Origin: an uncultured Planctomycetia bacterium
GTDB taxonomy: Bacteria; Omnitrophota; Gorgyraeia; B26-G9
DNA: 64,000 nucleotides
Assembly: GCA_964437495.1 (NCBI GenBank)
Contig: CAYTGV010000001.1
Location: forward strand, 28,552 to 92,551
Direction of reading: 5' to 3'
In this document: piece after piece, positions 3,842-63,237 of the stretch
Numbering within the stretch: the first letter of the stretch is position 1
Layout of the letters: the number at the start of each line of letters is the position of its first letter
Made by a program: the position numbers and the translations under genes
Notes under the pieces: model-generated
Databases searched by the model: none
Told to the model about the DNA's origin: nothing
What the model saw: the letters and a program-made list of their open reading frames with translations, nothing else

Positions 3842-3850
3842 CCCCCCCCC
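3842..3850 (-). repeat. Homopolymeric C9 (G9 on the coding strand) tract inside the ribosome-binding site of the MMPL exporter
   Basis: Minus strand reads AAGGGGGGGGGTAGGA-ATG. This is the only G/C homopolymer of 8 or more in a roughly 35% GC window. Confidence 0.7.
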
Positions 3851-4012
3851 TTAAAGGATTAGATGAATTTAAAAAAATGCACTGCTTTTAAACATACAAA
3901 TATATATTTATATTAATGATTTGTTTTTAAAGTAAACATACCGCTTTAACATTAAAATATTGTTTATTATTATATTATTGCGCTTCTTATTGTCAATACA
4001 ATATTATCTTGA

Positions 4013-4246
4013 TCATACCGCGATTAAACAGCTATCAATCTTCGGCTGATCAAATCCAATAATAACAGTACCATCTATATCAATTACAGACACCCCCATC
4101 TGACCAGAAAGTTTAATCATTTCCTCTGCTTTAGTTTTATCGATGGAAACATCAATTGATTAATATGCTATGCCTTTTGAAGAAAAATACTTTTTAGCCA
4201 TTGTACAGTAAAGACAAGTTGGCATTGAATAAATTTTCACCTCCAT
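4013..4246 (-). pseudogene. Glutaredoxin-like (NrdH/Grx thioredoxin-fold) gene with an in-frame TAA at 4160..4162
   Basis: A single frame reads MEVKIYSMPTCLYCTMAKKYFSSKGIAY-*-SIDVSIDKTKAEEMIKLSGQMGVSVIDIDGTVIIGFDQPKIDSCLIAV. It has the CxxC redox motif and Grx-family hallmarks (a C-terminal ...VIDIDG...GFD... block), and GGAG lies about 8 nt upstream of the ATG. Homologues usually have E or K where the stop falls. Confidence 0.55.
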
Positions 4247-4281
4247 ATATCACTCCTCTTCTAAAAGACATAAAACGAATA

Positions 4282-4764
4282 TTAATTTGTTATTTTTTTT
4301 CTAAACTCTGTCAATACTATGACATGCCTTTTTTCTTCTCTTATAATACTATCCAGCAACTCTTTCTTATCATCTAACACATATTCCTTTAATGCTGTGT
4401 AGACAAGTATTGATTCTTTTTCTATCTGTAATCCAAAATCCAAAGCCTCCAGAGTACTCGCAAACAATTCCTCTGTTTTTCTCTTTATTAACTCAGGGGT
4501 GAATATATAAGTCACAGCTATTGCTTCTAAATAAGCATCATAATCTCCCACACCAAATTCTTTAATGAAATAATCTCCAGAGCTCTCAAGCATCTTTTTA
4601 AATCTGCTTTGATGGCCTATTTCCTGCTCTTTTAAAAACTTCCAAACAGACTTTATTTTTTTGTCCTCTGCCTTTTCTTCAAGCTTAGCGTAAAGCTACT
4701 CGCCATTTTCCTCTACCTTCAAAGCAATATCAAGAATTTCCTGCGGACTCCAATTATTATTCAT
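4282..4764 (-). pseudogene. Ferritin-like / rubrerythrin-family diiron protein with an in-frame TAG at 4696..4698
   Basis: A single frame reads MNNNWSPQEILDIALKVEENGE-*-LYAKLEEKAEDKKIKSVWKFLKEQEIGHQSRFKKMLESSGDYF...EKRHVIVLTEF. It has two E..H diiron-type motifs. The track ORF 4282..4593 is only the part after the stop; same frame, no frameshift. Confidence 0.55.
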
Positions 4765-4774
4765 CTTTGCTCCT

Positions 4775-5953
4775 TTATCCGGATATTAACTGTTTTATTT
4801 TACTGACCACACCCTTTAGGCCCTCAAGATCACTCTCATCCGGAACAAACTGCATATAAATCCCATCTTCTATAATCTGCATACCTGCCTCTTTTAATCC
4901 CTCTTCAAGCTCTTTAAATCCTATCTTTGCCCAGCCATATGAACCAAAGCTAAGCGCAAACCTGTTTTTAGGCTTTAATCCCTTTAAGTAAGTCAGGAAT
5001 CCACCCATGCTCGGCAATATCTGATTATTAAGGATAGCACTTCCCAAAAGGACAACCTTTGATCTCATAACTTCTGTTATCGCATCTGAGAAATCCGATG
5101 TTTTTAAACTAAGCTTTACAACAGGAATACCTTCCCTGTCAAGCAAATCACCTAATTCAAAAGCAATCTTTTCCGTAGAATGCCACATAGTATCATAAAT
5201 AATGACCGCTCTGTTATCAGACTCGTAGTTTGCCCATTTTTTGTAAAGTTGTAATATTTTTTTTATATTTTCTTGTTTTTTCCAAATCAGTCCGTGAGAC
5301 GGACATATCATTTTAATATCCAGGGATTTTAAAGCCTCAAGCACCTTAAGAACCTGCGCTCCGTAAGGCATCACAATATTAGCATAATACTTTGCTGCTG
5401 CCTCAAAAACTATATCCGCTCCAACCTCATGGACATAACGCTCAGAGCTTGCATGATGCTGACCGAAAGCATCGTTAGGGAACAAGATCGAATCATCCGG
5501 CGAATAGGTTGCCATTGAATCAGGCCAATGCACCATGGGCATCAGAAAAAACTTCAATATCCTTCTGCCTATTTTTAGCTCATCGCCAGTATTGACAACT
5601 TTAAACTTCCAATCTTTCTTAAAATGCCTCTTTAGCCCCTTTTCCCCAGCCAGAGAACACACGACCTCTGCCTTAGGACAAAGCTCAAGCATCTTTTCAA
5701 TGCATCCAGAATGGTCCATTTCAGTATGATTTGAGATTATATACTCTATCTTCGAGGGATCAATAACCGCTTTGATCCTAGAGGCCATCTCATCAAAACC
5801 ATAATGCTTTACAGTATCTATCAATGTCGGCTTTTCATCAACAATAAGATAGGCATTATAAGTGGATCCAGTAGGAGTGGAATACCCGTGAAAATTACGC
5901 AGTTCCCAATCAATATCCCCAACCCAATAGATATCTTTTTTTATCTCTGTCAT
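4775..5953 (-). CDS. Flavodiiron protein (rubredoxin:oxygen oxidoreductase / FprA family)
   Basis: 392 aa with an N-terminal metallo-beta-lactamase-like diiron domain (HWPDSMATYSPDDSILFPNDAFGQHHAS) and a C-terminal flavodoxin-like domain. Confidence 0.9.
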   Translation of the reverse strand: MTEIKKDIYWVGDIDWELRNFHGYSTPTGSTYNAYLIVDEKPTLIDTVKHYGFDEMASRIKAVIDPSKIEYIISNHTEMDHSGCIEKMLELCPKAEVVCSLAGEKGLKRHFKKDWKFKVVNTGDELKIGRRILKFFLMPMVHWPDSMATYSPDDSILFPNDAFGQHHASSERYVHEVGADIVFEAAAKYYANIVMPYGAQVLKVLEALKSLDIKMICPSHGLIWKKQENIKKILQLYKKWANYESDNRAVIIYDTMWHSTEKIAFELGDLLDREGIPVVKLSLKTSDFSDAITEVMRSKVVLLGSAILNNQILPSMGGFLTYLKGLKPKNRFALSFGSYGWAKIGFKELEEGLKEAGMQIIEDGIYMQFVPDESDLEGLKGVVSKIKQLISG

Positions 5954-5981
5954 TTGAATTCCTCTTAAAAGTTTCTTTGGT

Positions 5982-6122
5982 TTATTTTACTTCCTTAAAC
6001 TGATCTTTGCCTACCCCGCAATCAGGACAAACCCAGTCGTCCGCAAGCGCCTCAAAAGCCACATTATTATTCTCTGCCGGGTCATAAATATATCCGCAAA
6101 CTATACATTCAAATTTTTTCAT
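5982..6122 (-). CDS. rub: Rubredoxin
   Basis: [19 protein letters not shown]...[19 protein letters not shown] has two CxxCG knuckles. Internal start of track ORF 5982..6206, with GGAGG upstream. Confidence 0.9.
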
Positions 6123-6136
6123 ATTTCCTCCTTTAA

Positions 6137-6457
6137 TTATTTTATCAAACCGCTTAACATGCTCACCAGCTTTTCCTTTGGGACCACCCCCACTGACTCT
6201 CCGCAAACCTGTCCCTTATTAAAAATCAAAACCGTGGGAATACTCATCACTCCATATCGAGTTGCTACATCAGGAGCATCATCAACATTCAATTTACAGA
6301 TCTTTACTTTTCCATTATATTCATTAGCCATTTCATCTATAAGCGGTGTTAATATACGACAGGGACTGCACCATTGGGCCCAAAAATCTATAAGCACCGG
6401 AATGTCTGATTTAATAACTTCTTGTTCAAAATTTTCTGTACTTAGCGCTAAAGCCAT
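6137..6457 (-). CDS. trxA: Thioredoxin (variant WCSPC active site)
   Basis: 106 aa with thioredoxin-fold signature ...[13 protein letters not shown]... and ...[14 protein letters not shown]... Confidence 0.85.
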
Positions 6458-6619
6458 TCTTTTGCTTCCTCCTTATTTTTAAGATTTTAGAACAAATTAA
6501 TATCCTATTTTGCCAGCTCATATATTTTATCTTCTATTAATTCAGCATCTTTTTCTTCTTCAATCAGCAAATTTAAAAACATTTCACGCGCAACAAGCTG
6601 TTCCTAATCCAGGCGCTGA

Positions 6620-6650
6620 TAAAGATCATGCGCCTGCCTATCCTTATGAG
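6620..6650 (-). terminator. Putative stem-loop terminator downstream of the SOR gene
   Basis: Inverted repeat caggcgc...gcgcctg with a T-run nearby on the minus strand, lying between the sor stop (6662) and the trx start (6457). Confidence 0.3.
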
Positions 6651-6661
6651 AATAGCCTTAT

Positions 6662-7057
6662 TTATACAACTGTTATTTTTTTTGTGCTTTCCCACAAACC
6701 GTGTATATTACAATAACTGATTGCAATCAAGCTACCTGATTTTTCTGTTTTTATAGTCAAATTTACTGATGGCTGTGTATATATACCGCTTGTATTAGCT
6801 CCCTGCGCCGATGCCCCATGTGAAGCTAGCTCTGTACGCGCGATTTGATATGGAAATTTCTCTCCATCTGCCAGAAAATATACTGAAATCCAAGCGATAT
6901 GATGCTCTGAAGTATTGGGATGCGCTATTTCTTTACCAACCGTTATATTAAAATCCAAAGCATCTCCCTTTTTGATATTATCTGCTGATTCTATTGCCGG
7001 CACATGCTTTTCTGTTTTCCAATCTGCACTTTGAACCAGATCTTTTGCAATGGTCAT
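6662..7057 (-). CDS. sor: Superoxide reductase, 1Fe neelaredoxin/desulfoferrodoxin class
   Basis: 131 aa with EKHVPAIE, HPNTSEHHIAWISVYF and CNIHGLWES motifs (the His4-Cys iron ligand pattern of SORs). Confidence 0.85.
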   Translation of the reverse strand: MTIAKDLVQSADWKTEKHVPAIESADNIKKGDALDFNITVGKEIAHPNTSEHHIAWISVYFLADGEKFPYQIARTELASHGASAQGANTSGIYTQPSVNLTIKTEKSGSLIAISYCNIHGLWESTKKITVV

Positions 7058-7073
7058 TTAATACCTCCTTTTG

Positions 7074-7577
7074 TTAGAACTTTTTGAACATTTCCTTTTT
7101 AACGCCGCAAATAGGGCAAAAATCCGGATATTCGTTTTCTGCTGTAAATCCGCAAACAGGACACACATAGAAATCTACTGAATCGATATCCTTATTCGCA
7201 TCTACAGCAACTTTTGTTTTCTTATACATAGTCTCATGGATTTTTTCAGCCTCAAGCGCATAATGAGCTGACCTTGCTGCATTTTTTTCCCCCTGCTTTT
7301 CAGCCTCAGCCAAATAGGCAGGATACATTTCCTCTACCTCAAAATGTTCTCCGCTTATAGCCACCGGCAGATTATCCACACTTGTTCCAATGCCGCCAAA
7401 AACTTTTAGATGATTGCCAGCGTGAACTCGCTCTGCATAGGCTATGGCCCGGAAAAGCCTGGCCACATTCAGTTTACCTTCTTTTTCTGCTATATCAGCG
7501 AATATAAGATATTTCATATGCGCCTGCGATTCTCCAGAAAAAGCATTTTGCAAATTTTGTTTCGTCATTTCATGCAT
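7074..7577 (-). CDS. rbr: Rubrerythrin
   Basis: 167 aa with an N-terminal ferritin-like diiron domain (E..H pairs) and a C-terminal rubredoxin-like CPVCG...CPICG. Confidence 0.9.
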   Translation of the reverse strand: MHEMTKQNLQNAFSGESQAHMKYLIFADIAEKEGKLNVARLFRAIAYAERVHAGNHLKVFGGIGTSVDNLPVAISGEHFEVEEMYPAYLAEAEKQGEKNAARSAHYALEAEKIHETMYKKTKVAVDANKDIDSVDFYVCPVCGFTAENEYPDFCPICGVKKEMFKKF

Positions 7578-7642
7578 AATTTTCTCCCTTCAATGAGCAT
7601 ATCACTTAAGGAACAAAGTAACTTAAGCGATATATGCGAATT

Positions 7643-7697
7643 AACCCCGCCATGGCGGGGTTGATCCCCCCGCCTGTTTTGCCCTTGCAAAACAGGC
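7643..7697 (-). terminator. Two tandem GC-rich hairpins between the regulator-reductase operon and rbr
   Basis: aaccccgccatggcggggtt is a perfect 20-nt palindrome at 7643..7662. gcctgttttgc-cctt-gcaaaacaggc is an 11-bp stem at 7672..7697. Both lie just 3' of the stop of gene 7716..8426. Confidence 0.5.
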
Positions 7698-7715
7698 AGA
7701 TATTATCACTACATT

Positions 7716-8426
7716 CTAATAACCTATGAAATTTTCCGCCATTATCCAATTTTTATCACAGCCTGATTCAACACATAAGTCTTTCATGGCCTTGACCATA
7801 ACCGGTGGACCGTAAATAAAAAATCGCCTTGCCGTTAAATCCTGCAACCGGCCGCTTAACAATTCGCCAGATATATGCCCATGCACGCATATATCATCTT
7901 TAGGCTCGCAATCAGTAACCGTATATACAACCTGCATATTTTCATTAAGCCTGTTCCAGGAATCAAGTTCCCGCCTAAAGGCAATCTCCTCCTTATTTCG
8001 ATTCGAATAAAAAAGAATTATGTCTATACCCAGTTTTTTTTCCATAATATATTCCAGAATAGAAATAACCGGGGTAATGCCAATGCCTCCGATAAGAAAT
8101 CCTATCTTTTTATAATCTTCTTTAAATATACAGTTTCCCATCGGCCCCTGCATTAAAAGACTATCTCCTAGCTTTAATCCTTTCAGTCTTGCCGAAAAAG
8201 AACTCTCGCTCAAGCGCTTTGTAACCTCAACATAGTCCTTCTCAGGTGAGACTGAAAAAGAAAGATATTTATTAAGATCTTTATTCTGCAGAGCTTTATC
8301 ATCAAAAACAACTTTCACAAACTGCCCGGGCGCAAAAGTAATCTTTTCACTGGTTTTAAAACAAAAACTCTCCACGCTCGGAGTCCTTTTAATCCTTTGA
8401 ATTAGTTCTGCGGAAAATGTATTCAA
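7716..8426 (-). CDS. FNR-like FAD/NAD(P)-binding oxidoreductase (ferredoxin-NADP reductase family), candidate NAD(P)H:rubredoxin-side reductase
   Basis: 236 aa with an FAD-binding barrel (QFVKVVF...YLSFSVSP) and an NAD-binding Rossmann domain (GFLIGGIGITPV). Overlaps the upstream regulator gene by 4 bp. Confidence 0.7.
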   Translation of the reverse strand: MNTFSAELIQRIKRTPSVESFCFKTSEKITFAPGQFVKVVFDDKALQNKDLNKYLSFSVSPEKDYVEVTKRLSESSFSARLKGLKLGDSLLMQGPMGNCIFKEDYKKIGFLIGGIGITPVISILEYIMEKKLGIDIILFYSNRNKEEIAFRRELDSWNRLNENMQVVYTVTDCEPKDDICVHGHISGELLSGRLQDLTARRFFIYGPPVMVKAMKDLCVESGCDKNWIMAENFIGY

Positions 8427-8866
8427 CTCTCAGCTCTTCCTTTATTTTCACTATTAACAGCCCCAACCCGGCACTCACGGCAAATACCGTAAAAATATCC
8501 CTGAAGTTCCTGGATCACATGCCCGTCTACCTCGGATCTCTGCAGAGTCAGACAGAGAGGTATATCAACATCAAAAACTTTTTTGCATTTTTTACAATAG
8601 AAATGATGGTGAGCATCCATTCTGCTATCATAGCATGATTTATCAAAATTAATTCTTATCTCTCTCGCCAAATTTTTCTTACCGTAAAGCTCTAAAATAG
8701 TATAAATTGTAGCCAAAGAAATAGCCGGAAATTTATCTTTCATTTTCCTGTAAATCTCATCAACAGTCAAGTGCTTATTTGTATTGCACAATAGATCATA
8801 AACTCCCAGCCTTTGAGGAGTAATACGAATGCCTTTTTCTTTAAGTATTGCGATTTTATCTTTCAT
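8423..8866 (-). CDS. Fur-family transcriptional regulator (PerR-like peroxide sensor)
   Basis: 147 aa with an N-terminal winged helix and C-terminal HHHFYCKKC...CRECR metal sites. First gene of the oxidative-stress island, with a Fur/Per box upstream. Confidence 0.8.
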   Translation of the reverse strand: MKDKIAILKEKGIRITPQRLGVYDLLCNTNKHLTVDEIYRKMKDKFPAISLATIYTILELYGKKNLAREIRINFDKSCYDSRMDAHHHFYCKKCKKVFDVDIPLCLTLQRSEVDGHVIQELQGYFYGICRECRVGAVNSENKGRAES

Positions 8867-9143: not shown

Positions 9144-12100
9144 ATGAAATACAAAAAAAACACATACAAAAAACTGCTTCTAATTATACTAGTCAACTCT
9201 TTGATTTTTTCTCATTATTTTATTGGGCAAGTTTTGGCTGAGCAGGCCTCCGACACTTATATAAAAAAATACACTAGGATAGATAGTAATGACCTTCTTT
9301 CCCCCCAAAGCAATATTGAAAAGTTAAGGGCAGGCAGCTTTTTCGAAAAAAGCCTCACTTCTGAGTTTACCGGTTCAAGACTGTCAAATAAAAAGCCAAG
9401 AAAATTAGCTGATTTAAAACTGGCCAATAAAAACCTTTTTCCAATCCCGTTCCCATTCCCTTCCGCACAATTTGATCGAGGACAATCAACTCCGGAATGG
9501 CTTGAGTCATATATTATGTCAAGAGTACTTCTAGAGCTAAGTTTCAAGCACAACAACTTGATACCTTTAAAAGCAGCCTTAGAAATTGCCCCGGAAGTTT
9601 TCGAAAATTACGGGCTAAAAGCAAATATAAAAAAAATAATCAAGCTTATTAATGGATTACAAAAAAGAGCTTTAATCTCAAATGCTGACGGTCTTGATTT
9701 CAGCTATAACCACCAGCAGATTATTCAGATTAATGTTCCTTTAAGAACTTTGGCCGTCTGGTCTGATGCCTTTAATTTTATCCGCAGTGATATTAAAAAC
9801 GCTCTTGCTTCTAGCCACTATGATTTCCTTACCATAATTGAGGAATATGCCCTCACTAGTGAATTGTGGCCTGCTCATCCAATTGAATCCCGGTATCCGG
9901 TACTAAGAGCCATTGCCAGTTTAACAGCAGAGGAACAAAAGAAACTCATAGCTATATTACTAAATAATGAACGGCTAAGAACCTATCCGCTCATAGATTC
10001 CACAATACTCATGCTGGACTTCGAGGAAGGAAAAAAAGAGTGGCTGCAAAAATATGCTCCTCAATTAGTAAATCGAAACCTTTATCTTATTGCCGCGGAA
10101 ATATCATTACTTGCCGGCGGCTTAGGAAGAGTGATGCAGTATCACGGAACAAATATGCATAAACTCGGAGCCAATGTGCTTTATGTAGAACCGTATTATC
10201 CCCTAACCAGAGATAAAACTGGATCCGTACAGCCTTTGGACTACTCAGGCTTGGCTATACCCGTTAAAGATTTGAAAAAAATCGACTACGATTTTACCAC
10301 AATAGTTCAAAATGGAAATATTTCTTTTGAAGTCTTTGTCGGGAAAAACACACTCGGCATAACCGTTTATCTGATCAGAGATAAAAAATCCGAATATGTT
10401 AATATCCTGTATGAATACGGCACTCAGGAATCTCCTGCCTCAAATTATGAATTTACCGAGTTTTTCACCAAAGCAACTCTGGAACTTATTAAATATTTGG
10501 AAGTAAAAGAACGAAAAAAATTAGGCAACAGATATAAACCTCCGCTTGTAGATGCAAACGACGGACAGGCTCTGCCCTTAAATGCTTTTAGAAGAATTTT
10601 TTATTTAGATAAGGAAAAAATAATCACAGAAGGCACAAACAAAAGAGATATAGATTTAGCACATGAGGTGTTAACTCAGGCAATTTTTAACGGTACAACT
10701 CATACTTACCGAAACCGCGGTATCATCAATGACTTTAATTACGGCCGTCATTTTTTAAGTAATGCAGGGATCCCAGAAGAATATCTATGGCTGTTTCTTC
10801 GCAAAGAAATCGATGGAACCCTTCTTTGGGATATGACTAGCGGCGGGCTTAGAAGTTCTGATACAAGCAAAGCTGTTTCCGCAATTCATGCCCATGAAAT
10901 GAATGCCCTTGATCCGATGATAAAACTTATCGGCATTACCAACGGCGATGACCGCGTGTATTCTTCCGCTTATTTCAGAGAGGCACTAAAAATTCTGGGA
11001 GTATCCGACTTTGAACATCCCACTGCACAGCAGGTTGCAAAAGCAAAAGCTATCTGCAAAAAAAATATCGGGCTTGACCCTAATCAAATGGTCATCTCCT
11101 ATTCCGGCAGGCTGGTGCAGGAAAAGGCAGGCCGAAACCGTGCTTTGACAGATGAAAACATCGAAGCTCTTGTAAAAGAAGGAATACAGGTACTTATCTA
11201 CGGCAATGTGCAGCCTTATGAAGAAAGCATTGCTATCAAAGAATCTCTTGAAAGACTACAGGAACGCTTATCAAACTCCGGATATAAAGGCAGGCTTATT
11301 TTTAAGCCAAAATTCAATATTGATGAACAAAGACAGCTTTTAGCTGCTACAGATATTCAGATCCAGGATTCTGACCGTTATACCGGAGCTGCCGAATATA
11401 CTGAAGCAGATGTTACCGCTAACGGCGGAATTCAAATGGGCGCTCCATTCTGGGAAGGAATAATTCAAAAACAAGGTGCTGTGATAAATTCAAAAACAAT
11501 GACCGGCAATACCCTTGTACCGGCCGATACAAACAGTAGCTCTTTTTTAAACTCTTTTAACTGGGCACATAAGAAATTCCTAGCTCCAAACAATGAACTT
11601 AGCGTTTATCAGGCCTCTTCTATCGAATTAAGCAGAGTTCTGGAGGCCTCTTTGACAGCTGCCGAATACTTACGCTTCTGGAATAATGCCTTCTGGGAGC
11701 AAAAAAATAAAATGCCAGCTCCGAAACCACGCGTTGCCGGAGAAGTCAACATCCTTGATTTATCCCTTATTTGCCATAGCAACTCAAAATCAGCCTCGAT
11801 TTTACGGCAAGTAAACAACTTCAGCTTGGATTATTCTCCCCAAAAAGGTGACGAATTGGAATTTACCGTTACTATAGACCGCCAGGCTTTTGATTCTCTG
11901 CATTATGGGCAAAAACATCTTGTCTCCTTTGACTTGGTTAGCGCTCAGCTTGTAAATGACTATGGACTCAGAGTACCTTTAAGCATCAAAAAAGTAGCCG
12001 AAATAACTGTAACCTTTAATGCTTTTTTACCTAAAAACCTGCCTCTGCCTTTTAATGGAATTATCGAAATAACTTCCGGATTATGGAAAAGCGCACGCAG

Positions 12101-12182
12101 TATAAGTATCACAACAAATACTATTGTAAAAAGAAAATCACCCATGGTAAATTCCACAAGTCAAGTATCGACTTCAATTTAG
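9144..12182 (+). CDS. Large exported protein (signal peptide) with a central divergent glycogen-synthase-like (GT5/GT-B) region; function unknown
   Basis: 1012 aa with signal peptide MKYKKNTYKKLLLIILVNSLIFSHYFIGQVLA|EQ. Motifs align with GlgA: NLYLIAAEISLLAGGLGRVMQ (KTGGLGDV-like), YSGRLVQEKAG (GRLxxQKG), SDRYTGAAEYTEADVTANGG (SRFEPCGL...TGGL-like). Catalytic K and E positions appear substituted. Confidence 0.5.
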   Translation: MKYKKNTYKKLLLIILVNSLIFSHYFIGQVLAEQASDTYIKKYTRIDSNDLLSPQSNIEKLRAGSFFEKSLTSEFTGSRLSNKKPRKLADLKLANKNLFPIPFPFPSAQFDRGQSTPEWLESYIMSRVLLELSFKHNNLIPLKAALEIAPEVFENYGLKANIKKIIKLINGLQKRALISNADGLDFSYNHQQIIQINVPLRTLAVWSDAFNFIRSDIKNALASSHYDFLTIIEEYALTSELWPAHPIESRYPVLRAIASLTAEEQKKLIAILLNNERLRTYPLIDSTILMLDFEEGKKEWLQKYAPQLVNRNLYLIAAEISLLAGGLGRVMQYHGTNMHKLGANVLYVEPYYPLTRDKTGSVQPLDYSGLAIPVKDLKKIDYDFTTIVQNGNISFEVFVGKNTLGITVYLIRDKKSEYVNILYEYGTQESPASNYEFTEFFTKATLELIKYLEVKERKKLGNRYKPPLVDANDGQALPLNAFRRIFYLDKEKIITEGTNKRDIDLAHEVLTQAIFNGTTHTYRNRGIINDFNYGRHFLSNAGIPEEYLWLFLRKEIDGTLLWDMTSGGLRSSDTSKAVSAIHAHEMNALDPMIKLIGITNGDDRVYSSAYFREALKILGVSDFEHPTAQQVAKAKAICKKNIGLDPNQMVISYSGRLVQEKAGRNRALTDENIEALVKEGIQVLIYGNVQPYEESIAIKESLERLQERLSNSGYKGRLIFKPKFNIDEQRQLLAATDIQIQDSDRYTGAAEYTEADVTANGGIQMGAPFWEGIIQKQGAVINSKTMTGNTLVPADTNSSSFLNSFNWAHKKFLAPNNELSVYQASSIELSRVLEASLTAAEYLRFWNNAFWEQKNKMPAPKPRVAGEVNILDLSLICHSNSKSASILRQVNNFSLDYSPQKGDELEFTVTIDRQAFDSLHYGQKHLVSFDLVSAQLVNDYGLRVPLSIKKVAEITVTFNAFLPKNLPLPFNGIIEITSGLWKSARSISITTNTIVKRKSPMVNSTSQVSTSI

Positions 12183-38097: not shown

Positions 38098-38494
38098 TTA
38101 AGAATTGTAGTTTTTTAAACACTTCTTCTTCAACAAAAATCGGCGCTTGTGTACGCAAAGCAAGCGCAATACTATCACTTGGACGCGCATCGATATTTAT
38201 AACCCTTTTATCAGCAGTGCGCAAAAATAGCTGTGCATAAAAAGTGTTTCCCTCCAGTTTATTTATAATAACACTTTGAATCTGTGCTCCCATCTGATCA
38301 AGAATATTTTTTAGTAAATCATGCGTTAGCGGACGAGGCGGCCTAATATTACTTACTTTCATTTTAATTGCCGCCGCCTCTGCCACTCCAATAATTATCG
38401 GTATCTGCCTCTGGCCATCCTTCTCTTTTAGAATAATTATTTGATCATGCTTATTCTCATGCATAATAATTTTATAAAGGCTTACGCTTACCAT
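38090..38494 (-). CDS. Bifunctional-nuclease-domain (DUF151) protein
   Basis: 134 aa; ...[23 protein letters not shown]...RPLTHDL... is the DUF151/BFN pattern. Confidence 0.6.
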
Positions 38495-38922
38495 TGGGGC
38501 TCCTTCCCGATTTTAGAACAAAAATAGTCTTTAAGTATTTTTTTGTGATCAAAAGCTATATCCACCGGCAGATTTTCCAGACTGAAAACTACGGCATTTT
38601 TTGCGTCACTACCAGCACACAGATCCCCCCTGCCAACAGCAGTGAAAACAACTGATATTGTATGCCCTCTCGGGTCACGCTCTGGATCAGAATAAGCATG
38701 AAATTGCTTCAGATCGTAAACAGCCAAATTAGTTTCTTCCTTTGCTTCTCGGATTGCTGCTGTTTCCAGACTTTCCTTATAATCGACAAATCCTCCGGGG
38801 ATCGCCCATCCATAGGGAGAATTCTTTCTTTCAACAAGAATAACTCCGTTTCCGCATTCAATAATAATATCTACAGTCGGCAATGGATTTCTATTTTTCA
38901 ACATAAAACACTCTAGCCTCAA
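38488..38922 (-). CDS. NUDIX hydrolase
   Basis: Nudix box [24 protein letters not shown]. Confidence 0.8.
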
Positions 38923-38925
38923 ACA

Positions 38926-39570
38926 TCAAGTCACCAGGCCAATTGCCCGGAAAAATATATCCACACTATTCGGATCAGGTATAAGCATAAAATTTCCGTT
39001 AAGCTGCTGATTATCTGTAGCAAAAGAAGTATTAATGCTTATGCCCTCATTTGATTTCATGGTATTCTTAATAAAATCAGCAAACTCATCATCCCCAAAA
39101 CTTACCGCGGGAATACCGCAATTAGTCTGCAAATTAAACATAGAATCAACCGCAGAAAAATAAGTATTTGCAATAATACTTACAATCTCACCGAAAATAC
39201 ACTTTTGGTCCTCCATGGACAGACAGTTAACATCAGTAGAGTCTAGTCCCTCACCATTAACAAATTTATTCATCAGATCCAAGGCATCATTTTTTGAGAA
39301 TATGATCAAAGTTTCCGTGAAATCAGATATCCCCTCAACAGTAAGATATGCTACTACCATCATACTTGTGTCATTTGAGACTAGACGTGATTTATAAAAA
39401 TCACTCATATCAGGCAAAGAAATATCAATTTTTTCTCCGGATATTTCTCCGATAGCTTTTGCTACATGACTAATGCCGATATTGGCAAGTTCCTTCAGCG
39501 CAGAGCTCTTTAATTCATCAAACTGGCTAACACACTCCATTTCATCTAACCCCTTTTTCTCTTCATCCAT
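38926..39570 (-). CDS. CheC/CheX-family chemotaxis phosphatase-like protein
   Basis: ELANIGISHVAKAIGEISG matches the CheC E..N-IG..-AA-ALS motif. Confidence 0.55.
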   Translation of the reverse strand: MDEEKKGLDEMECVSQFDELKSSALKELANIGISHVAKAIGEISGEKIDISLPDMSDFYKSRLVSNDTSMMVVAYLTVEGISDFTETLIIFSKNDALDLMNKFVNGEGLDSTDVNCLSMEDQKCIFGEIVSIIANTYFSAVDSMFNLQTNCGIPAVSFGDDEFADFIKNTMKSNEGISINTSFATDNQQLNGNFMLIPDPNSVDIFFRAIGLVT

Positions 39571-39935
39571 CTGGTAAACATCCCCTTAGATCTAATATCA
39601 TTTCTTACATTCAGAAGATCCTGATCAATGTTCATATAATCAAAATCATCATACCCTAGATTAACCGCTTTTTTAAGCGCCTCAATCGCTTCGTTTATAT
39701 TTGCCGTTAAAGAATAACTGCAAGCAAGGTTATAATATACAATAGCATCATCCGGCCTAAGCGTGCTAAGACGCTTATCAATAACCAGTCCTCTATCGTA
39801 ATCTCCGGCTTTCGTATAGGCCTCAGCCAGAGGAATAAGCACATCTACAAAATCAACATTTTCTTTGATAAGCTTTTCGAAAAATTCTATTTCAAAATCC
39901 ATTATATTTTTATCGCTTTCGCTATTTTTCTTCAA
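39546..39935 (-). CDS. TPR-repeat protein
   Basis: 129 aa with TPR-like A..Y..LA..Y repeats. Confidence 0.5.
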   Translation of the reverse strand: MKKNSESDKNIMDFEIEFFEKLIKENVDFVDVLIPLAEAYTKAGDYDRGLVIDKRLSTLRPDDAIVYYNLACSYSLTANINEAIEALKKAVNLGYDDFDYMNIDQDLLNVRNDIRSKGMFTRWMKRKRG

Positions 39936-39947
39936 TTTCTTGCTCCC

Positions 39948-41309
39948 TTAAAAATCCGTTTCTTTAACTTTAAGTTTTCTACTCAGTTCTCTTGTCAGTT
40001 TTTTTAGACCGGGGCTTCGAATTACCGGGTAAACTTTTTCTGCCTTTAATTTCTTATAAGCTGCAGGCAGATCGTCGATCTGTCTTTTTACAAAGCTTCT
40101 GACCTGTGCCATCTTCGGCTGCGGCCTTAATAATCTGCCCTTTTCAATCATTTTCAACAAAAGCGGTTCACCTTTTTGCCGCTCAGTTTCTAAAGCCAGA
40201 ATATCTTTCATGAAATTACCCTTCCTATCCCTTAGGCGATAGATCTTTTTTCTACCCGGATAAGTAGCCTTATTTGAACTTAATTTCATTGTTGGGCAAA
40301 ATTTAGCTTTCCCATTATTAATCTCGCTTAGCTTATAGACAATATCACAATATGGCGCATCTGATGAAACCCCCATATTTGTTCCTACACCAAAACTGTC
40401 AATCGAAGCTTTAGCCCTTACTAGTTTTTCAATCTTATGCTCATCTAAATTACCGCTTGCCAGTATCTTTACATAGGCAAAACCATGCTTATTCAGCAAT
40501 GCCCTGATCTTTTTACTCTCTTTTACCAGATCTCCGCTATCTAAACGTACTCCAAGCAATTGAAACCCTTTTTTTTCAAGTTCTCTCGCAACTATTAATG
40601 CATTATTTATCCCCTGGCGATAACTATATGTATCCAGCAACAGCACTGACTCTTTAGGAAAAGTCTCTGTATATGCACGAAAACTCTCAAGTTCACTGTC
40701 AAAAGACATTACAAAAGAATGCGCCATTGTTCCTGCTAACTTAATGCCCAAAATCTTTCCAGCCAAAACATTTGAGGTTCCGCTACAACCTGCGATATAA
40801 CTGGCTTTGGCGACCTGCAGACTTGCAGCCGGCCCCTGAATTCTTCGCAGCGAAAAATCAAAAACAGGCCGCCCTCCTGCTGCAATAACAACCCTTGCCG
40901 CTTTAGAAGCAATTGCAGTCTGAATATTAATTGTGTTGAGAAGATACGCTTCAACGAGCTGTGCCTGAGCTAAAGGAGCAGTGATTCTCATTATAGGCTC
41001 TTGCGGAAAAATCAAAGTCCCCTCTCTGAGAGCCCAAACATCCCCGCTAAATTTAAGCCGGCTTAAAAATCTAAAGAAATCACTTTCAAAATTGTATTGT
41101 TTTAAATAAGCAATATCATCTTTTGTGAACTGGAAATTTTTCAAATATAAAAGAGCATCATTAATTCCGCAAGCAACCAAAAAAGACCTGTCTTTCGGAA
41201 GATTACGGATAAACAAATCAAATGTTGCCTCTGCCTGCGGCAAGAACCGCTTATATCCATTAGCCATTGTCAGAGCATAAAAATCCAGGATTAGGGCAGT
41301 TTTTCTCAT
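39948..41309 (-). CDS. pncB: Nicotinate phosphoribosyltransferase
   Basis: 453 aa; N-terminal LDFYALTMANGY motif and overall NAPRTase layout. Confidence 0.7.
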   Translation of the reverse strand: MRKTALILDFYALTMANGYKRFLPQAEATFDLFIRNLPKDRSFLVACGINDALLYLKNFQFTKDDIAYLKQYNFESDFFRFLSRLKFSGDVWALREGTLIFPQEPIMRITAPLAQAQLVEAYLLNTINIQTAIASKAARVVIAAGGRPVFDFSLRRIQGPAASLQVAKASYIAGCSGTSNVLAGKILGIKLAGTMAHSFVMSFDSELESFRAYTETFPKESVLLLDTYSYRQGINNALIVARELEKKGFQLLGVRLDSGDLVKESKKIRALLNKHGFAYVKILASGNLDEHKIEKLVRAKASIDSFGVGTNMGVSSDAPYCDIVYKLSEINNGKAKFCPTMKLSSNKATYPGRKKIYRLRDRKGNFMKDILALETERQKGEPLLLKMIEKGRLLRPQPKMAQVRSFVKRQIDDLPAAYKKLKAEKVYPVIRSPGLKKLTRELSRKLKVKETDF

Positions 41310-42009: not shown

Positions 42010-42690
42010 TTATCGCTTCCTATTGCGTAAAAAAGAAGCAAACACAAATCCCCCTGTGAAACCACCTATATACGCCCACCAGGCTACCTTAACCAGGCCT
42101 TGCCTTGAACCCGGCAAAGTAAAAAATCCATTTAAGAACTGGATAAGAAACCATATACCTAAAAAGAAATATACCGGCATCTCCGCCACAGTCCAAAAAA
42201 TAAACACCGAAAACAAAATTATTATTTTTGCCCCAGAAAAAACAACAAATACGCTCCAGGGACACCAGAAATACATCCGCTTGCCCCCAAAGCAGGCACA
42301 TTAGAATGAATATTTAAATATATGCGTAAAATTTCCAACAAGACCACACAAAATATAAAAGATTAAAAATTTAAAGTGCCCTAATTTATCTTCGGCATTA
42401 TCTCCCAATATCCACAAATACCACATATTCCTCAGTCAATGAAGCCAGCCGGCATGCAGAAAAAGTGAACTTATCAAAGATATTATTCCGGCAATAGCCT
42501 GCGATAATGTCCAGGCCCGCATATTTAAAAAAGCCTCAGGAACTACCGCAAATCTAGAAATCACTTCTTTAAGTTACGATCCAAGCAAAATTTCCTTTAA
42601 AAATATATATATATGCGATTATCAGCAAAATAGTTACCAGCGCCAACCTTCTTGCCTTAGCCTTATCGCGCAAAGGTATCAATATGAAAC
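42010..42690 (-). pseudogene. Decayed rhomboid-family intramembrane protease gene (frameshift plus in-frame TGA and TAA)
   Basis: One frame from 42573 to 42010 reads ...SLFLHAGWLH-*(TGA 42436..42438)-LRNMWYLWILGDNAEDKLGHFKFLIFYILCGLVGNF...-*(TAA 42301..42303)-...VFSGAKIII...VAWWAYIGGFTGGFVF. It carries the rhomboid H..N, GxSG-like and AHxxG motifs. The TM1-like piece RRLALVTILLIIAYIYIF sits upstream in another frame. Track ORF 42010..42276 is the C-terminal fragment. Confidence 0.55.
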
Positions 42691-43348: not shown

Positions 43349-44845
43349 CTAGTTTGCATTCCCCGCACCATAATCGTGAAAATACTCCATTATTATTGCC
43401 GCAATATTTTCGGCTATTATCCGATATCCATGCTTTGTACAATGCCTGTCTTCTTCTGAGACAAAGTAATATTTATAAGGCCGATGCCTTAAGAGCTGAA
43501 CAAATCTCTCTTCATGCCGAATAATCTCAATCTTATACCTGAAAGCCACTTCCATTATTTCAGATGAAACCCCATCAGGATATCCCGAAAAGAAAAGCCT
43601 TATATTGTTACGCTCACAAGACTCTACCATTTCTTTTAAATTAGCAGACAAAATTTCAGAAACATTGCTTTCTTTCATAAGAACATTCGCGAAATATAAA
43701 TTTGCTATTTTAAAAATACTGTTCCTGCCTCGAAGTTTATCCTGAAAGTAATCACGCCTTAATTTTGCGTTCTTGTCTACCATTTCTATAGCTAACTCAA
43801 TACAATCTCTACTTTTCGGATCCAGCTTCAAGGCCTTCAGATAATAAGCCCTGGATTCTATAAAAAAATTATCCATATAAAGGTCACCTGCCATACGAAT
43901 ATACGCCTGAGATAAAAATTTTTTAGCCATATTATTTTTTGGAAATTTTAATAAGAATTTTTCGTAAAATAAAACAGTTTTTTCAATAATATCCATTCTC
44001 ATAAAGACATCCTCCAGTTCTTGATGCCAGATTCGAGCCTCAGGATTCTTATTCAAAGCAACCGTTAAACGATTTAACGCTTTAGCATATTCTCTGTTAA
44101 GCTTATAACAACGAATTAATTCAAGTACGCTCAGATCATCATTGCCATCGATCATTATTGCTTTATAATAAAATCGTTTTGCCAATCCATAATAACCAAA
44201 GTCTCTATATATATTTGCGTAACGTATTAAGATAGGAACAGTTTGGACTTGGGCCAGCTTTAACCGGGCGAAATGATTATATTTTTCTTTCGAATTGATT
44301 TGTGCACTCTTCAATTTTAAGTTTTGCAAAATCACAGAAAAAAACTTAGAGATTCTAAGCCTTCCCATAAGAAACTGAAACAGTTTTCTATCTAATCTGA
44401 TATTACTATCATCAAAATTCCAGGTATCATTTCCGCCGCACATAATAATCACTGCCTCGGGCTTAAGATCAGAGACCGCTTTTTTAAGCTTTTTAAGAAC
44501 CTGGGTAGAATTGCTGCCGGGAACTCCCAAATTAATAATATTGAACTTTTTCCCATTTTTTTGTTGATTTAATATCTCCTGCATCTGCACAGGATAGCTA
44601 AATTTGGCTTTTGCTCCAATTCCGTAAGTAAACGAATCGCCAAAACAAAGAATTTTTATTGCTTGATATTGGGCTTCCTGGCCTTTTGCTCTATAAATGT
44701 GCTGCATAAAATAACTGCACACAGACAGAACCGTTTCCATGCTCAGAAGCGCAATACTGATTCCAAGAACGATGAGCAATATTTTTAAACGCAATTTTAT
44801 TGATTTTTTCTTATTCTTCATTTCGGGAATTTTTCCAGTATTCAC
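43349..44845 (-). CDS. Membrane-anchored SGNH/GDSL-hydrolase-like protein with TPR repeats
   Basis: FGDSFTYG (GDS block) and IIMCGGNDTWNF (GGND block) with TPRs in the middle; 498 aa. Confidence 0.6.
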   Translation of the reverse strand: MNTGKIPEMKNKKKSIKLRLKILLIVLGISIALLSMETVLSVCSYFMQHIYRAKGQEAQYQAIKILCFGDSFTYGIGAKAKFSYPVQMQEILNQQKNGKKFNIINLGVPGSNSTQVLKKLKKAVSDLKPEAVIIMCGGNDTWNFDDSNIRLDRKLFQFLMGRLRISKFFSVILQNLKLKSAQINSKEKYNHFARLKLAQVQTVPILIRYANIYRDFGYYGLAKRFYYKAIMIDGNDDLSVLELIRCYKLNREYAKALNRLTVALNKNPEARIWHQELEDVFMRMDIIEKTVLFYEKFLLKFPKNNMAKKFLSQAYIRMAGDLYMDNFFIESRAYYLKALKLDPKSRDCIELAIEMVDKNAKLRRDYFQDKLRGRNSIFKIANLYFANVLMKESNVSEILSANLKEMVESCERNNIRLFFSGYPDGVSSEIMEVAFRYKIEIIRHEERFVQLLRHRPYKYYFVSEEDRHCTKHGYRIIAENIAAIIMEYFHDYGAGNAN

Positions 44846-45455
44846 AGTATTTATTTATAACACATTCTTTGCATCTGGGTTTTCGCGAAATACAAATTTC
44901 ACGGCCATGAGCAATGAGTAAATGATTTATTGCCCCCCAATCCCTGCGCACAAAAAGATCCATAAGATCTTTCTCTATCTTCACCGGATTGTTATTTTGC
45001 GTTAAGCCTAGCCTTTGAGCAAGACGCCGCACATGTGTATCCACAGCAATTCCTTCATTTTTCGAAAAAGCATTATATAAAATAACATTTGCGGATTTTC
45101 TGGCAATACCCGGAAGGCTAACTAAATCAGCCATATTCTCCGGAATATGTCCTTTAAACTTGTCTCTTAACATAATAGCTACTGCAATAATATTTTTTGC
45201 TTTATTGCGAAAGAATCCTACAGAACGGATATCCTGTTCTAATATTTCAACTTTAGCATTTGCCCAATCAGATAGAAAGCGATATTTTTGAAACAAAGAG
45301 TCTGTGACAATATTAACGCGCCTGTCAGTACACTGTGCAGAAAGCATCGTGGCGACAAGAAGCTCAAAATTATTTGAAAACCTTAAAGCAATTTTAGCCT
45401 CAGGGTATTTTTTTTTAAGTACTTTGATCAATTTTGCTTTTTTACTTCGATACAC
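44811..45455 (-). CDS. nth: Endonuclease III
   Basis: HhH-GPD motif and a C-terminal 4Fe-4S Cys cluster CISRKPRCKECVINKYC. Confidence 0.9.
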   Translation of the reverse strand: MYRSKKAKLIKVLKKKYPEAKIALRFSNNFELLVATMLSAQCTDRRVNIVTDSLFQKYRFLSDWANAKVEILEQDIRSVGFFRNKAKNIIAVAIMLRDKFKGHIPENMADLVSLPGIARKSANVILYNAFSKNEGIAVDTHVRRLAQRLGLTQNNNPVKIEKDLMDLFVRRDWGAINHLLIAHGREICISRKPRCKECVINKYCEYWKNSRNEE

Positions 45456-45580: not shown

Positions 45581-45769
45581 ATGAAAGCAATTATAGACAC
45601 AGAAGCTTGTGTAGGATGTGGATTATGCGCTAATATGTGCGCAGAGGTATACCAGATGGAAGACGACAAAGCAATTGTTATCGGCAATTCCATTCCAGAG
45701 GAACTCTTGGATTCAGCAAAAGAAGCAGCCACAAGCTGCCCTGTAGAAGCAATAAAAATAGAGGGTTAA
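45581..45769 (+). CDS. 4Fe-4S ferredoxin (small monocluster type)
   Basis: MKAIIDTEACVGCGLCANMCAEVYQ...ATSCPVEAIKIEG, 62 aa; internal start within track ORF 45434..45769. Confidence 0.8.
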   Translation: MKAIIDTEACVGCGLCANMCAEVYQMEDDKAIVIGNSIPEELLDSAKEAATSCPVEAIKIEG

Positions 45770-52334: not shown

Positions 52335-53705
52335 TTAAAGCTGCTTGAAAAACTTATCCTCAAATATCGTCCCTTGATTAAGAACAAGATCAGGATCTAT
52401 TGTCTTTTTAATAATAGCCATTTCACGCAACCCTTTAACGCCAAGCATAATTTTAAGATATTTCCGTTTTAATTTACCGATTCCATGTTCTGCTGAAACA
52501 GTTCCTCCCAATCTAAGGCCTTCCTTGACAAACTCAAGGTAAAGATTTTTAGCCCTTTGAAAATCGTTTTTAGTTTTCGGCATTAAATTAACGTAAAGAT
52601 GATTTTCCCCGATATGGTCGAATACGCAATATTGCATACTGCTGTTTTCAAGTGCGCGTTCATAGAAATCAAACATCCCCGGAAAATGCCTATCTGAAAC
52701 CGCAATATCAGTATTAATCTTCGAAAACCCGTTTTCTTTAACTCTTTCATTTATAAAAACCGGCAAATCGTAGCGCATTGCATTAATAGGAATCTAGCGG
52801 TATTTCGGCCTGAGCATATCAAGAGAGAAGACGTCAAAATATTCAATACAACTAGCATCAATATCGTTATTTTTAGCAGATTTTCGGCTGGTATATGTTA
52901 GTTTTTTAGATTAAAAACAAATTCCAGTGCCTGCATTTTGGTTTTAAAAAAGACTACTCCGTTAAACTCCTGTTCCGGCAATTCACAGAGGATTACTTTG
53001 ATCTTACTTATCATACCTAAAATACCCTCACAACCAATAAACAAGTCAATCAGATCACTACCGGAAAAGATATAATAATCGACAGAATTTTTAACTTTAG
53101 GCAGGCGGTAGCCGGGCAAAGCACAGAATAATGGCTTGTTTTTAATAGGAATATAGAGCCTGTTTTTAACAAAACAATTACCTCTTTGGATATCAAGTAA
53201 TTGCCCTGTGGACAGGATAATATACAGGCCAAGGATATGCTTTCTTGTTGAACCGTATTTAAAACCTTTAGCCCCGGAGGCATTGGTAGCTACGGTTCCC
53301 CCCAAGATATGCATTTTTTTCTGTAGGATCAAGTAAATAGGTGAGTCCGTATTTAGCAGCCTCCAGGCATAACTGCTCAATGCTCACGCCAGGCTCTATA
53401 ACTGCAAATCCCCCAGGCTTGTCCGGAAATTTTTTAATATCAACTATTTTGTTTAGTTTTTCAGTTGAAATTATTGAACCACTCAAGGAAATTCTACCTC
53501 CCACAATACCGGTTTATGCTTCGAATATAGTCAGGGGCATTTTTCCAGAAGCAGCTTCTTTAAAATAAGCAATTGCCTCATATTCAGTTTTAGGAAAAAC
53601 TATTTCCCGGGCATTTCCACAACTCAACCCAGAACTATCCTGTAAATAATCTTTGAATGTATCTATATTCTTTTTTCGTAACATAATTAACCTAATTACC
53701 TTCAT
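52335..53705 (-). pseudogene. FAD-linked oxidase (GlcD / D-lactate dehydrogenase family) gene broken into at least 4 pieces
   Basis: Track ORFs 53514..53705, 53268..53504, 52898..53380 and 52335..52778 together span an FAD_binding_4 domain (...GGNxxTNASGAKGFKYG...) and the C-terminal ...SAEHGIGKLK...DPDLVLNQG. Lesions: an in-frame TAA at 53514..53516 (...LTIFEA*TGIVGGRISL), a frame change inside a G6 homopolymer at about 53299..53304, and a stop/frame break in 52779..52897. Confidence 0.6.
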
Positions 53706-54186: not shown

Positions 54187-54432
54187 CTATTGGGAAGGAT
54201 CTTTTTTCTTCTTAAATATATTAGAAAGCTTTTCTAAATTAGTATGTTTTTTTTGTACTGCGCTTAGATTTTGTTTATGAATAGAATCATATATTTCTTT
54301 TCTATGAACAGGGATATCTCGCGGAGCAGTTATCCCCAGCTTAACTTGCTCACCGCGGACTTCCACAACCTTCACTTCAACATTGTCCCCGATAATTATA
54401 CTTTCATTTGGCTTGCGCGAAAGAACTAACAT
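54187..54432 (-). CDS. csrA: Carbon storage regulator CsrA
   Basis: [48 protein letters not shown]. Confidence 0.9.
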
Positions 54433-54880
54433 TTTTATCCTCTATTTTTTTAAGCATTTCATCCAAAACTAAATGTTGTATCGAATAATCCTGTTCTTGT
54501 AAGACTACCTGTCTACATATATTTTTCTCTTTATTAATCATCAGCGGTGCCAGTAAATTAGCGCTGATTTGATCTGAGCCTTGAGGCACACACACAATAA
54601 CATAACACATGCATTCCTCAATATCGCTGATCTGCAATGCTGTTTTATCCAGTAATGATACTACGGGTTTATAATCCAGTTTAACTTCCAGAGGATCCAT
54701 AATGATAAAATTTATTCCAGAGTCGCTTTGCGACTGCATCCAAAAGAAAGGCTCCTTTGATTTCTCACTCACAATTCTATACTCTTTATGTGTTTCAAAC
54801 CCGATAATCCCTTCCGGAAAAAACATTTTGCTCCCATTGAGCGATGAAGCCCGCTCTTCATGTTTAATAGTTGTTTTCAT
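54404..54880 (-). CDS. fliW: Flagellar assembly factor FliW
   Basis: [43 protein letters not shown] matches the FliW pattern; overlaps csrA as in the Bacillus-type fliW-csrA pair. Confidence 0.85.
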
Positions 54881-61973: not shown

Positions 61974-62846
61974 CTATTTATTACCGCTTATTTTCTTTAA
62001 AACAAACGGTAGTATATTTAATATATCAGTGGCCAGTAAACTTAATTGGCCTGTATGTTTTACTGCCTCATCCCCAGCCATTCCATGTACATATACAGCT
62101 AATTTTACCGCATCAAATACATTTGGTGATTGACCTAAAAAAGCAGCTGTAATCCCTGTAAGCACATCCCCGCTGCCTCCCTTAGCCATACCGGGATTTC
62201 CTGTATTGTTTTCAAAGACTTCACCACTTGAATCTGCCACTACTGTTCTGTGGCCTTTTAATACAGTTACAATATTATACATACCTGAAAACTCTTTTGC
62301 AAGCATTCTTCGATTTTTCTGCACATAGCTTGTTTTTCTGTCTAAAATACGGCCCATTTCACCTGGATGGGGGGTGATCACTGTCAAGGCCCTGCGATTT
62401 TTTAAAATGTCCATATAACCCACAAGAGCATTCAATGCGTCTGCATCTATGACCATGGGAATATTTATACTACTTATGATCTTTCTTATAAGAGCCTGCG
62501 TTGACTTATTCCTTGATAGGCCAGGGCCGATAGCCAATACATCCTTATCTTTAGCAAATCTCCTTATTTGCGAAAAAGACTTTAAGGCCAGGCTACCTTG
62601 GCTTGTTTCCGGTAATGGCAAGGTCATTGCTTCTGTAAGTTTTCGGCTTACTATTGAATACTGGCTTTGAGCAATGCCAAGCGTCACCAACCCTGCCCCG
62701 CTAAGCAATGCACCTTTTGCGCATAAGACAGCTGCACCGGTCAATCCCTTTGATCCGGCTATAATAAAAATATGCCCAAAATTACCTTTATGGACATCTT
62801 TTTTTCTTTTTAAAAATTCCGTATTAAGACCCTTTTTACTTTTCAT
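61974..62846 (-). CDS. nnrD: ADP-dependent NAD(P)H-hydrate dehydratase (YjeF C-terminal domain)
   Basis: GNFGHIFIIAGSKGLTGAAVLCAKGALLSGAGLV... and ...GGSGDVLTGITAAFL. Confidence 0.8.
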   Translation of the reverse strand: MKSKKGLNTEFLKRKKDVHKGNFGHIFIIAGSKGLTGAAVLCAKGALLSGAGLVTLGIAQSQYSIVSRKLTEAMTLPLPETSQGSLALKSFSQIRRFAKDKDVLAIGPGLSRNKSTQALIRKIISSINIPMVIDADALNALVGYMDILKNRRALTVITPHPGEMGRILDRKTSYVQKNRRMLAKEFSGMYNIVTVLKGHRTVVADSSGEVFENNTGNPGMAKGGSGDVLTGITAAFLGQSPNVFDAVKLAVYVHGMAGDEAVKHTGQLSLLATDILNILPFVLKKISGNK

Positions 62847-63222
62847 TTTTCCCGACTAAAATAGCCATTGCCTGTGCATAATTACGGGTATGCGACATGC
62901 TTACACAGATTTCACTGATATTCTTCTTTTTTCTTAATTTCTCCATTGCCCGTTTTAATGTTACAACCGGCCGGCCATGCTTATTGTTTATAATCTCTAC
63001 ATCCCTAAGGTTAACAATTGAAAAACCATCACCAAATGCTTTTAATACCGCTTCTTTCGCGGCAAATCTCGCAGCCAGATGCTCACAATAGAATTTCCGG
63101 CTCATAGAATAATTTATTTCCTGCTCTGTGAATATTCTTTTAAGAAATGAATCCTTCCATTTTTTAATAGCATTCTTCATTCTTTTTGTTTCGATGATAT
63201 CAGTCCCACAACTTATAAACAT
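62836..63222 (-). CDS. acpS: Holo-[acyl-carrier-protein] synthase
   Basis: 128 aa; ...GTDIIE...FAAKEAVLKAFG... matches AcpS motifs. Confidence 0.85.
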   Translation of the reverse strand: MFISCGTDIIETKRMKNAIKKWKDSFLKRIFTEQEINYSMSRKFYCEHLAARFAAKEAVLKAFGDGFSIVNLRDVEIINNKHGRPVVTLKRAMEKLRKKKNISEICVSMSHTRNYAQAMAILVGKNEK

Positions 63223-63237
63223 CTTAATTCCTTTGAT

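Follow-up and report, generated by a model that had tools for sequence, protein, structure and literature searches.

Within an oxidative-stress operon, a glutaredoxin-like gene is found whose reading frame is open from start to end except for one in-frame TAA. This raises the question whether the gene has been inactivated, whether the stop is an artefact, or whether it is read through during translation. Here, this question was addressed in the window, i.e., the whole stretch of 64 kb of DNA that was analysed. The gene is very probably a recently inactivated pseudogene within an ongoing decay of accessory oxidative-stress genes. The following features define the locus:

4013..4246, minus strand: YruB-family glutaredoxin-like gene, very probably a pseudogene, 77 codons plus TGA, CxxC motif CLYC.
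4258..4253, minus strand: intact Shine-Dalgarno sequence GAGGAG, 6 nt before the ATG (read from the sequence).
4162..4160, minus strand: in-frame TAA, codon 29, followed by a T (TAA-T).
4088..4090, minus strand: codon 53, TCT (Ser), CCT in orthologues, at the position of the thioredoxin-fold cis-proline.

The gene starts with an ATG at 4246..4244 and ends with a TGA at 4015..4013 on the minus strand. Its translation reads MEVKIYSMPTCLYCTMAKKYFSSKGIAY up to the TAA and SIDVSIDKTKAEEMIKLSGQMGVSVIDIDGTVIIGFDQPKIDSCLIAV from there to the TGA, and no frameshift is found when the 77-codon frame is read in this way. The sequence-only reading of this DNA had described exactly such a frame, with a TAA at codon 29 (4160..4162), no frameshift, a CxxC motif and a good Shine-Dalgarno sequence, which is confirmed here. 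Also the half behind the stop, where conserved glutaredoxin blocks had been placed, is homologous. A tblastn search of the product against the orthologous loci aligned residues 1–74 with 76–77% identity, and the blocks SGQMGV, IDG, and GFD of the post-stop half align with the homologues. Furthermore, the Pfam family Glutaredoxin (PF00462) is matched with 52.7 bits (E = 5e-14; gathering threshold 22.9 bits), where residues 3–62 cover profile positions 1–60 of 60 and span the stop, written as X. Taken alone, the half 3' of the stop gives a weak Pfam match (E = 0.12).

The redox motif consists of C11-L-Y-C14, and all 64 homologues compared have both cysteines. At the second position of the motif, they differ from each other (P 43, G 6, S 5, V 4, and others), a leucine being unusual. 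A change of Pro12 to Leu, turning CPYC into CLYC, was considered as a further lesion and dropped since this position is variable. A second, paralogous glutaredoxin that could compensate for the loss was not found within the 64-kb window.

The nearest homologues are 72–80% identical, 74–76 aa long and all uninterrupted, and those with a name originate from Candidatus Omnitrophota MAGs. No interruption is present in any of the 13 database homologues or in any syntenic orthologue, and every homologue has a sense codon at position 29. In the three relatives whose DNA was at hand, this codon is GAA (Glu) without exception. This reveals the lesion as a single G-to-T change and agrees with the one-nucleotide step from GAA proposed earlier. 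The ten closest homologues all carry Glu29, and among 65 distinct homologues the residue is E in 21, R in 12, T in 11, K in 6, and N in 6 cases. The earlier expectation that homologues usually have Glu or Lys at this position is thus correct in substance, as Glu is the most common residue, with the qualification that Arg and Thr are both more frequent than Lys.

A second change concerns codon 53. Here, all 62 distinct homologues compared and all 32 sequences of the alignment A2 carry proline, and serine is found in the window copy only. In an alignment with E. coli Grx3 (PDB 1FOV), this residue corresponds to the proline of TVP. The effect of the exchange is visible in the family assignment. 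The best NCBIfam model for the product is the YruB family (TIGR02196), whose curated cut-off is 88.55 bits. The window product scores 84.4 bits with X at position 29 and 86.1 bits with Glu29, both below this cut-off, and the orthologues P0001 and P0007 reach 99.9 and 100.9 bits. Reverting Ser53 to Pro, together with Glu29, lifts the score from 86.1 to 91.9 bits and thereby above the cut-off. Pro53Ser alone therefore pushes the product out of the YruB range. Two more changes, Thr8Met and Val44Ile, occur in the window copy only, at columns that show no variation among the ten closest homologues. In total, the window copy shows four unique changes at otherwise invariant columns in comparison to zero to two in the relatives, a count that is confounded by the window copy being the outgroup.

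Of the hallmarks of the YruB family, the window copy has the CxxC motif and the association with rubredoxin and stress genes, since genes for rubredoxin, a flavodiiron protein, rubrerythrin, desulfoferrodoxin, and thioredoxin lie on the same strand and in the same cluster. The family score, the cis-proline, and an unbroken frame of about 75 codons are lacking. The gene is therefore best filed as a YruB-family pseudogene.

Seven core genes of the operon are intact, as judged from their open reading frames and from precomputed Pfam families on identical contigs:

8866..8423, minus strand: Fur/PerR-like gene, intact.
8426..7716, minus strand: FAD/NAD oxidoreductase gene, intact.
7577..7074, minus strand: rubrerythrin gene, intact.
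7057..6662, minus strand: desulfoferrodoxin gene, intact.
6457..6137, minus strand: thioredoxin gene, intact.
6122..5982, minus strand: rubredoxin gene, intact.
5953..4775, minus strand: flavodiiron protein gene, intact.

These seven genes (4775..8866) are 66–87% identical to the syntenic genes of a relative (locus L043). The sequence-only reading had placed the glutaredoxin-like gene inside an otherwise intact oxidative-stress operon. This is contradicted by two more damaged genes among them:

4282..4764, minus strand: rubrerythrin-like (ferritin-like diiron) pseudogene of 160 codons, adjoining the glutaredoxin-like gene on its upstream side.
4696..4698, minus strand: in-frame TAG, codon 23 of the rubrerythrin-like gene, CAT (His) or Lys in relatives.
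6505..6645, minus strand: ferritin-like gene remnant (58 aa in the relative), located between the desulfoferrodoxin and thioredoxin genes.

The frame of the rubrerythrin-like gene aligns without gaps and with 73% identity to an intact 161-aa orthologue of L043, and its product matches the Pfam family Rubrerythrin (E = 2.3e-9). Gene callers give just a tail of 103 aa (4593..4282), which leaves a gap of 181 bp, and in public gene calls this tail is carried as a protein without a Pfam match. In the relatives, the 161-aa gene begins 10 bp past the flavodiiron gene. The ferritin-like remnant was recognized by tblastn with 79% identity over 47 residues to a gene of L043 that is intact and encodes 58 aa. 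The remnant lacks a start codon, contains an in-frame TAG at 6606..6604, and has lost the histidine of its E-x-x-H motif to aspartate. Thus, three accessory genes of one operon stand at different stages of decay. In L043, the 58-aa gene is preceded by a short ferritin fragment, which is absent from the window.

The order of the operon is conserved. The window shares with L043 the succession of Fur, oxidoreductase, rubrerythrin, desulfoferrodoxin, thioredoxin, rubredoxin, flavodiiron protein, rubrerythrin-like, glutaredoxin, and MMPL genes, and the synteny is also kept in L006. In one relative (L043–L046 and L005), the order also comprises the ferritin fragment and the 58-aa gene after desulfoferrodoxin, a 48-aa ORF after the glutaredoxin gene, and a DUF1329-like gene after the MMPL gene. 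Judged by homology and by this synteny, the organism of the window most likely belongs near the Omnitrophota. Even at a distant locus (L049), the rubrerythrin-like and glutaredoxin genes are adjacent, with 51 and 57% identity, respectively. Relative to L043, the glutaredoxin-like gene has an identity of 77% and the rubrerythrin-like gene of 72.5%, and the intact neighbours range from 72 to 87%. Since both values lie within the range of the intact neighbours and the 48 codons behind the TAA are still open, the decay is probably young.

Some irregularities were also observed in the relatives. The 106-aa ferritin of L043 (2076–2396) looks N-terminally aberrant, and the spacer between its glutaredoxin and MMPL genes (5229–5571) seems, by eye, to contain fragments of an ArsR-like regulator. 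From L043, the erosion of accessory genes may be common across the clade. An uncalled rubrerythrin-like gene in L044 was considered as a recurrent disruption and rejected, because the site is a scaffold gap of Ns.

Decay is not confined to the stress operon. Two larger genes elsewhere in the window are broken:

42682..42010, minus strand: rhomboid protease pseudogene, spread over three frames by at least two frameshifts.
53705..52335, minus strand: GlcD-like FAD-linked oxidase pseudogene, with stops and at least two frameshifts, in at least four pieces.

For the rhomboid gene, Pfam Rhomboid positions 24–59, 59–87, and 81–141 are found in different frames, an in-frame TGA lies within the conserved WLH-x-x-x-N-M-W block, and a TAA follows further on. 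The GASG serine motif is located in another frame than its flanks. The pieces of the oxidase gene match FAD_binding_4 and FAD-oxidase_C. Altogether, about five of the roughly 68 genes in the 64 kb are decayed, by TAA, TAG, TGA, frameshifts, and deletion. Four pairs of neighbouring ORFs in the same frame (38488–39570, 39546–41309, 62836–63969, and 43349–45455) were examined as further genes with in-frame stops and rejected, as they carry unrelated Pfam domains and are separate genes. The larger intergenic gaps of the window contain no further gene remnants.

Small intact-looking ORFs are present in these larger gaps, e.g., a 4Fe-4S ferredoxin-like ORF ending at 45766. On the plus strand and divergent from the stress operon, positions 9144–12182 encode a protein of 1012 aa, for which a hydrophobic leader is predicted at the N-terminus. 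Its precomputed Pfam match is Glyco_transf_5 (starch/glycogen synthase-like), and it is unusually long for this family. At 54187–54880 on the minus strand, an 81-aa CsrA-like ORF overlaps the end of a 158-aa ORF, FliW-like by eye, by 29 nt.

The option of a recent nonsense mutation, which the sequence-only reading had offered among others, is therefore backed by a real TAA and by intact orthologues. The TAA could be real but unfixed, as a loss-of-function allele that segregates next to coexisting intact strains. This would be in line with a young lesion of one stop in a frame that is otherwise undamaged, and with the clonal nature of the contigs. The window is 100% identical to contigs of four public assemblies (ENA ERZ27316756, with a contig of 147 kb, ENA ERZ27317826, JGI 3300031645, and Logan SRR8862235), and the number of truly independent samples behind them may be as low as two. 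Against it stands the search for an intact allele from this species. None was found in a collection of 5.8 billion protein clusters, where the best match to the conceptual product was 80% identical; the genomes of the GTDB species and the metagenome contigs of JGI contained nothing closer than 78%. A segregating allele is therefore unlikely.

A functional gene whose stop is read through would be a more far-reaching explanation. Here, the TAA and the neighbouring TAG would be decoded by an ochre-type suppressor tRNA or owing to their context, perhaps keeping expression low or conditional. A tRNA with the anticodon UUA reads UAA as well as UAG and would thus serve both stops. Two adjacent genes, which may act together as their adjacency suggests, each have one early stop (codons 23 and 29) within a frame that is otherwise open and conserved, both ribosome-binding sites are intact, and the 48 codons past the TAA are about 75% identical to those of the orthologues. 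However, the window uses its stops in the normal manner. Of 59 intact genes, 32 terminate with TAA, 14 with TAG, and 13 with TGA, making TAA the main terminator, and the context TAA-T ends eight of the 59. In E. coli, UAAU terminates translation more efficiently than any other known signal. Also the rubrerythrin-like gene directly upstream itself terminates in TAA.

Furthermore, no suppressor tRNA was detected in the 64-kb window, where tRNA-Gly, tRNA-Tyr, and tRNA-Thr are the sole tRNAs, and no Rfam match beyond these tRNAs that could represent a recoding RNA element. The tRNA scan covered these 64 kb of the genome, and a suppressor encoded elsewhere would fall outside of it. TAA is not known as a codon for selenocysteine or pyrrolysine. 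The invariant cis-proline is lost, all orthologues have a sense codon at position 29, the same operon harbors a clearly dead remnant with a TAG, and other genes of the window are broken by TGA and frameshifts. Since the lesions comprise all three stop codons as well as frameshifts, no single recoding mechanism explains them. Functional read-through of the codon-29 TAA, another option of the sequence-only reading, thus finds no support and is very unlikely. The extended version, in which both adjacent redox genes are alive at low or conditional expression through stop read-through, e.g., by an ochre-type suppressor encoded elsewhere, has a very slim chance of being correct. If read-through were true, these would be natural stress genes depending on nonsense suppression in an uncultured phylum.

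A third explanation is an error of sequencing or assembly, with GAA as the true codon and an intact gene. A substitution of one base is the smallest possible artefact, and the four assemblies are not all independent. The contigs of ENA ERZ27317826, JGI 3300031645, and Logan SRR8862235 start exactly at window position 4275, and another contig ends at 4287. Because of this common start, the three assemblies probably share one read set of low coverage, and the break at 4275–4287 is probably a coverage gap at an AT-rich spot in that set; a strain-level structural variant might also account for it. Nevertheless, the assemblies come from different pipelines (megahit k141, JGI, Logan) and all four read TAT TAA TCA at codon 29. 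The 147-kb contig, from a separate ENA analysis, crosses the break at 4275, so that at least two data sets agree on the TAA. Two ORFs depend on the stops, the C-terminal one of 35 aa and, in the neighbouring gene, the tail of 103 aa. By exact look-up, both were found in records of NCBI, JGI, Logan, or ENA. In addition, Pro53Ser and the four other disrupted genes of the window lie beyond any single error. A base-call error, which had been left as a possibility before, is very unlikely.

Lastly, a reassignment of TAA to an amino acid in this organism, suggested by the in-frame TAA itself and nothing more, is ruled out by the stop usage of the 59 intact genes, as the 32 ending in TAA, the rubrerythrin-like and MMPL genes among them, do so where homologues and tight packing predict it, and the orthologues use GAA at the site.

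For the recent inactivation of the gene, the following course would fit the data. In this lineage, one G-to-T transversion changed codon 29 from GAA (Glu) to TAA. Translation would still start normally, as the Shine-Dalgarno sequence and the ATG are intact, and would stop after 28 residues comprising strand β1, the CxxC motif, and part of helix α1. Neither this peptide nor the 35-aa ORF starting at Met43 would be expected to fold as a thioredoxin domain, and no working redox protein would result. The exchange of Pro53 to Ser would fit a gene freed from purifying selection and may have come before or after the TAA. The loss is part of the wider accessory decay in the PerR-type operon, seen in the TAG of the rubrerythrin-like gene and in the 58-aa remnant. 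If the glutaredoxin cooperates with the rubrerythrin-like protein, as the recurring adjacency of their genes suggests, the loss of one may have relaxed the selection on the other.

Downstream of the gene, the following element was found:

3969..3996, minus strand: perfect sigma-70 consensus TTGACA-16-TATAAT (12 of 12 matches), between the stop of the glutaredoxin-like gene and the MMPL start.

The spacer in which it lies is AT-rich and has a length of 176 bp in the window, in comparison to 343 bp with the 48-aa ORF in L043. From this sequence, the MMPL genes are predicted to have their own promoter, so the TAA need not be polar and the downstream MMPL transporter genes would probably be unaffected. 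The MMPL gene of the window aligns end-to-end with an orthologue of 844 aa and, as noted, terminates in TAA. A run of nine G on the minus strand (3842–3850) abuts the TAGGA-ATG of the MMPL transporter gene, which encodes 842 aa. All assemblies agree on the length of this run, and L043 has AAAGGAGGAATAA at this place. This run could be a putative slippage-prone tract acting on translation initiation.

For annotation, this means that the locus should be treated as a glutaredoxin-like pseudogene and not as a candidate for recoding, and that the neighbouring 103-aa protein corresponds to the tail of another pseudogene. The lineage appears to shed accessory parts of the operon, i.e., the glutaredoxin, the rubrerythrin-like protein, and the mini-ferritin, and to keep the core detoxification enzymes. 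About five decayed genes out of roughly 68 hint at relaxed selection or genome reduction in this organism.

Among the known systems, the YruB family (TIGR02196) is the closest. Its name comes from a gene of Clostridium pasteurianum that was cloned from a rubredoxin operon, according to the TIGRFAMs description. The window copy has in common with this family a length of about 75 aa, the fold family, the N-terminal CxxC, the GFD block, and the location in a rubredoxin and stress operon. In contrast to the SGQxGVP block of the family, it has a serine in place of the cis-proline and, in addition, the TAA at codon 29. It is a disrupted descendant of the YruB family and no working member. A literature search on YruB, on pseudogenes in Omnitrophota, and on SRR8862235 yielded nothing useful.

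By sequence, the closest solved structures are E. coli Grx3 (PDB 1FOV/3GRX, E = 9e-11) and NrdH-redoxin (PDB 1R7H, E = 2e-9). The similarity is distant, and the alignment of residues 3–67 includes the CxxC as well as the loop with the TVP motif and the cis-proline. Both proteins carry the aligned proline, which the window copy lacks. They act with glutathione, thioredoxin reductase, or ribonucleotide reductase, and the partners of YruB may differ from these.

The UXX-star selenoproteins (NCBIfam NF041212 and relatives) are also members of the glutaredoxin-like superfamily. In these proteins, an in-frame TGA encodes selenocysteine at the redox-active position and is genuinely decoded. The stop of the window copy is instead a TAA. 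It lies 15 codons past the CxxC motif, on the surface of the protein, where residues vary and the closest orthologues have Glu. With 57–59 bits, the window protein stays below the cut-off of 66. A kinship with the selenocysteine-containing UXX-star proteins was therefore rejected, due to the score, the TAA instead of a TGA, and the distance from the active site.

The inactivation of a gene by a nonsense mutation during gene decay is a well-known kind of event. Pseudogenes arising from nonsense mutations and frameshifts are known from bacteria in which selection is relaxed or the genome is being reduced, such as Mycobacterium leprae and symbionts that have recently become restricted to a host. 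Unlike in the M. leprae type of genome, the pseudogene load is known here from 64 kb alone. As in such genomes, neighbouring as well as unrelated genes of the window are found at varied stages, from a single stop, a stop with the loss of a key residue, and frameshifts to a remnant without a start codon, with the core of the operon remaining intact.
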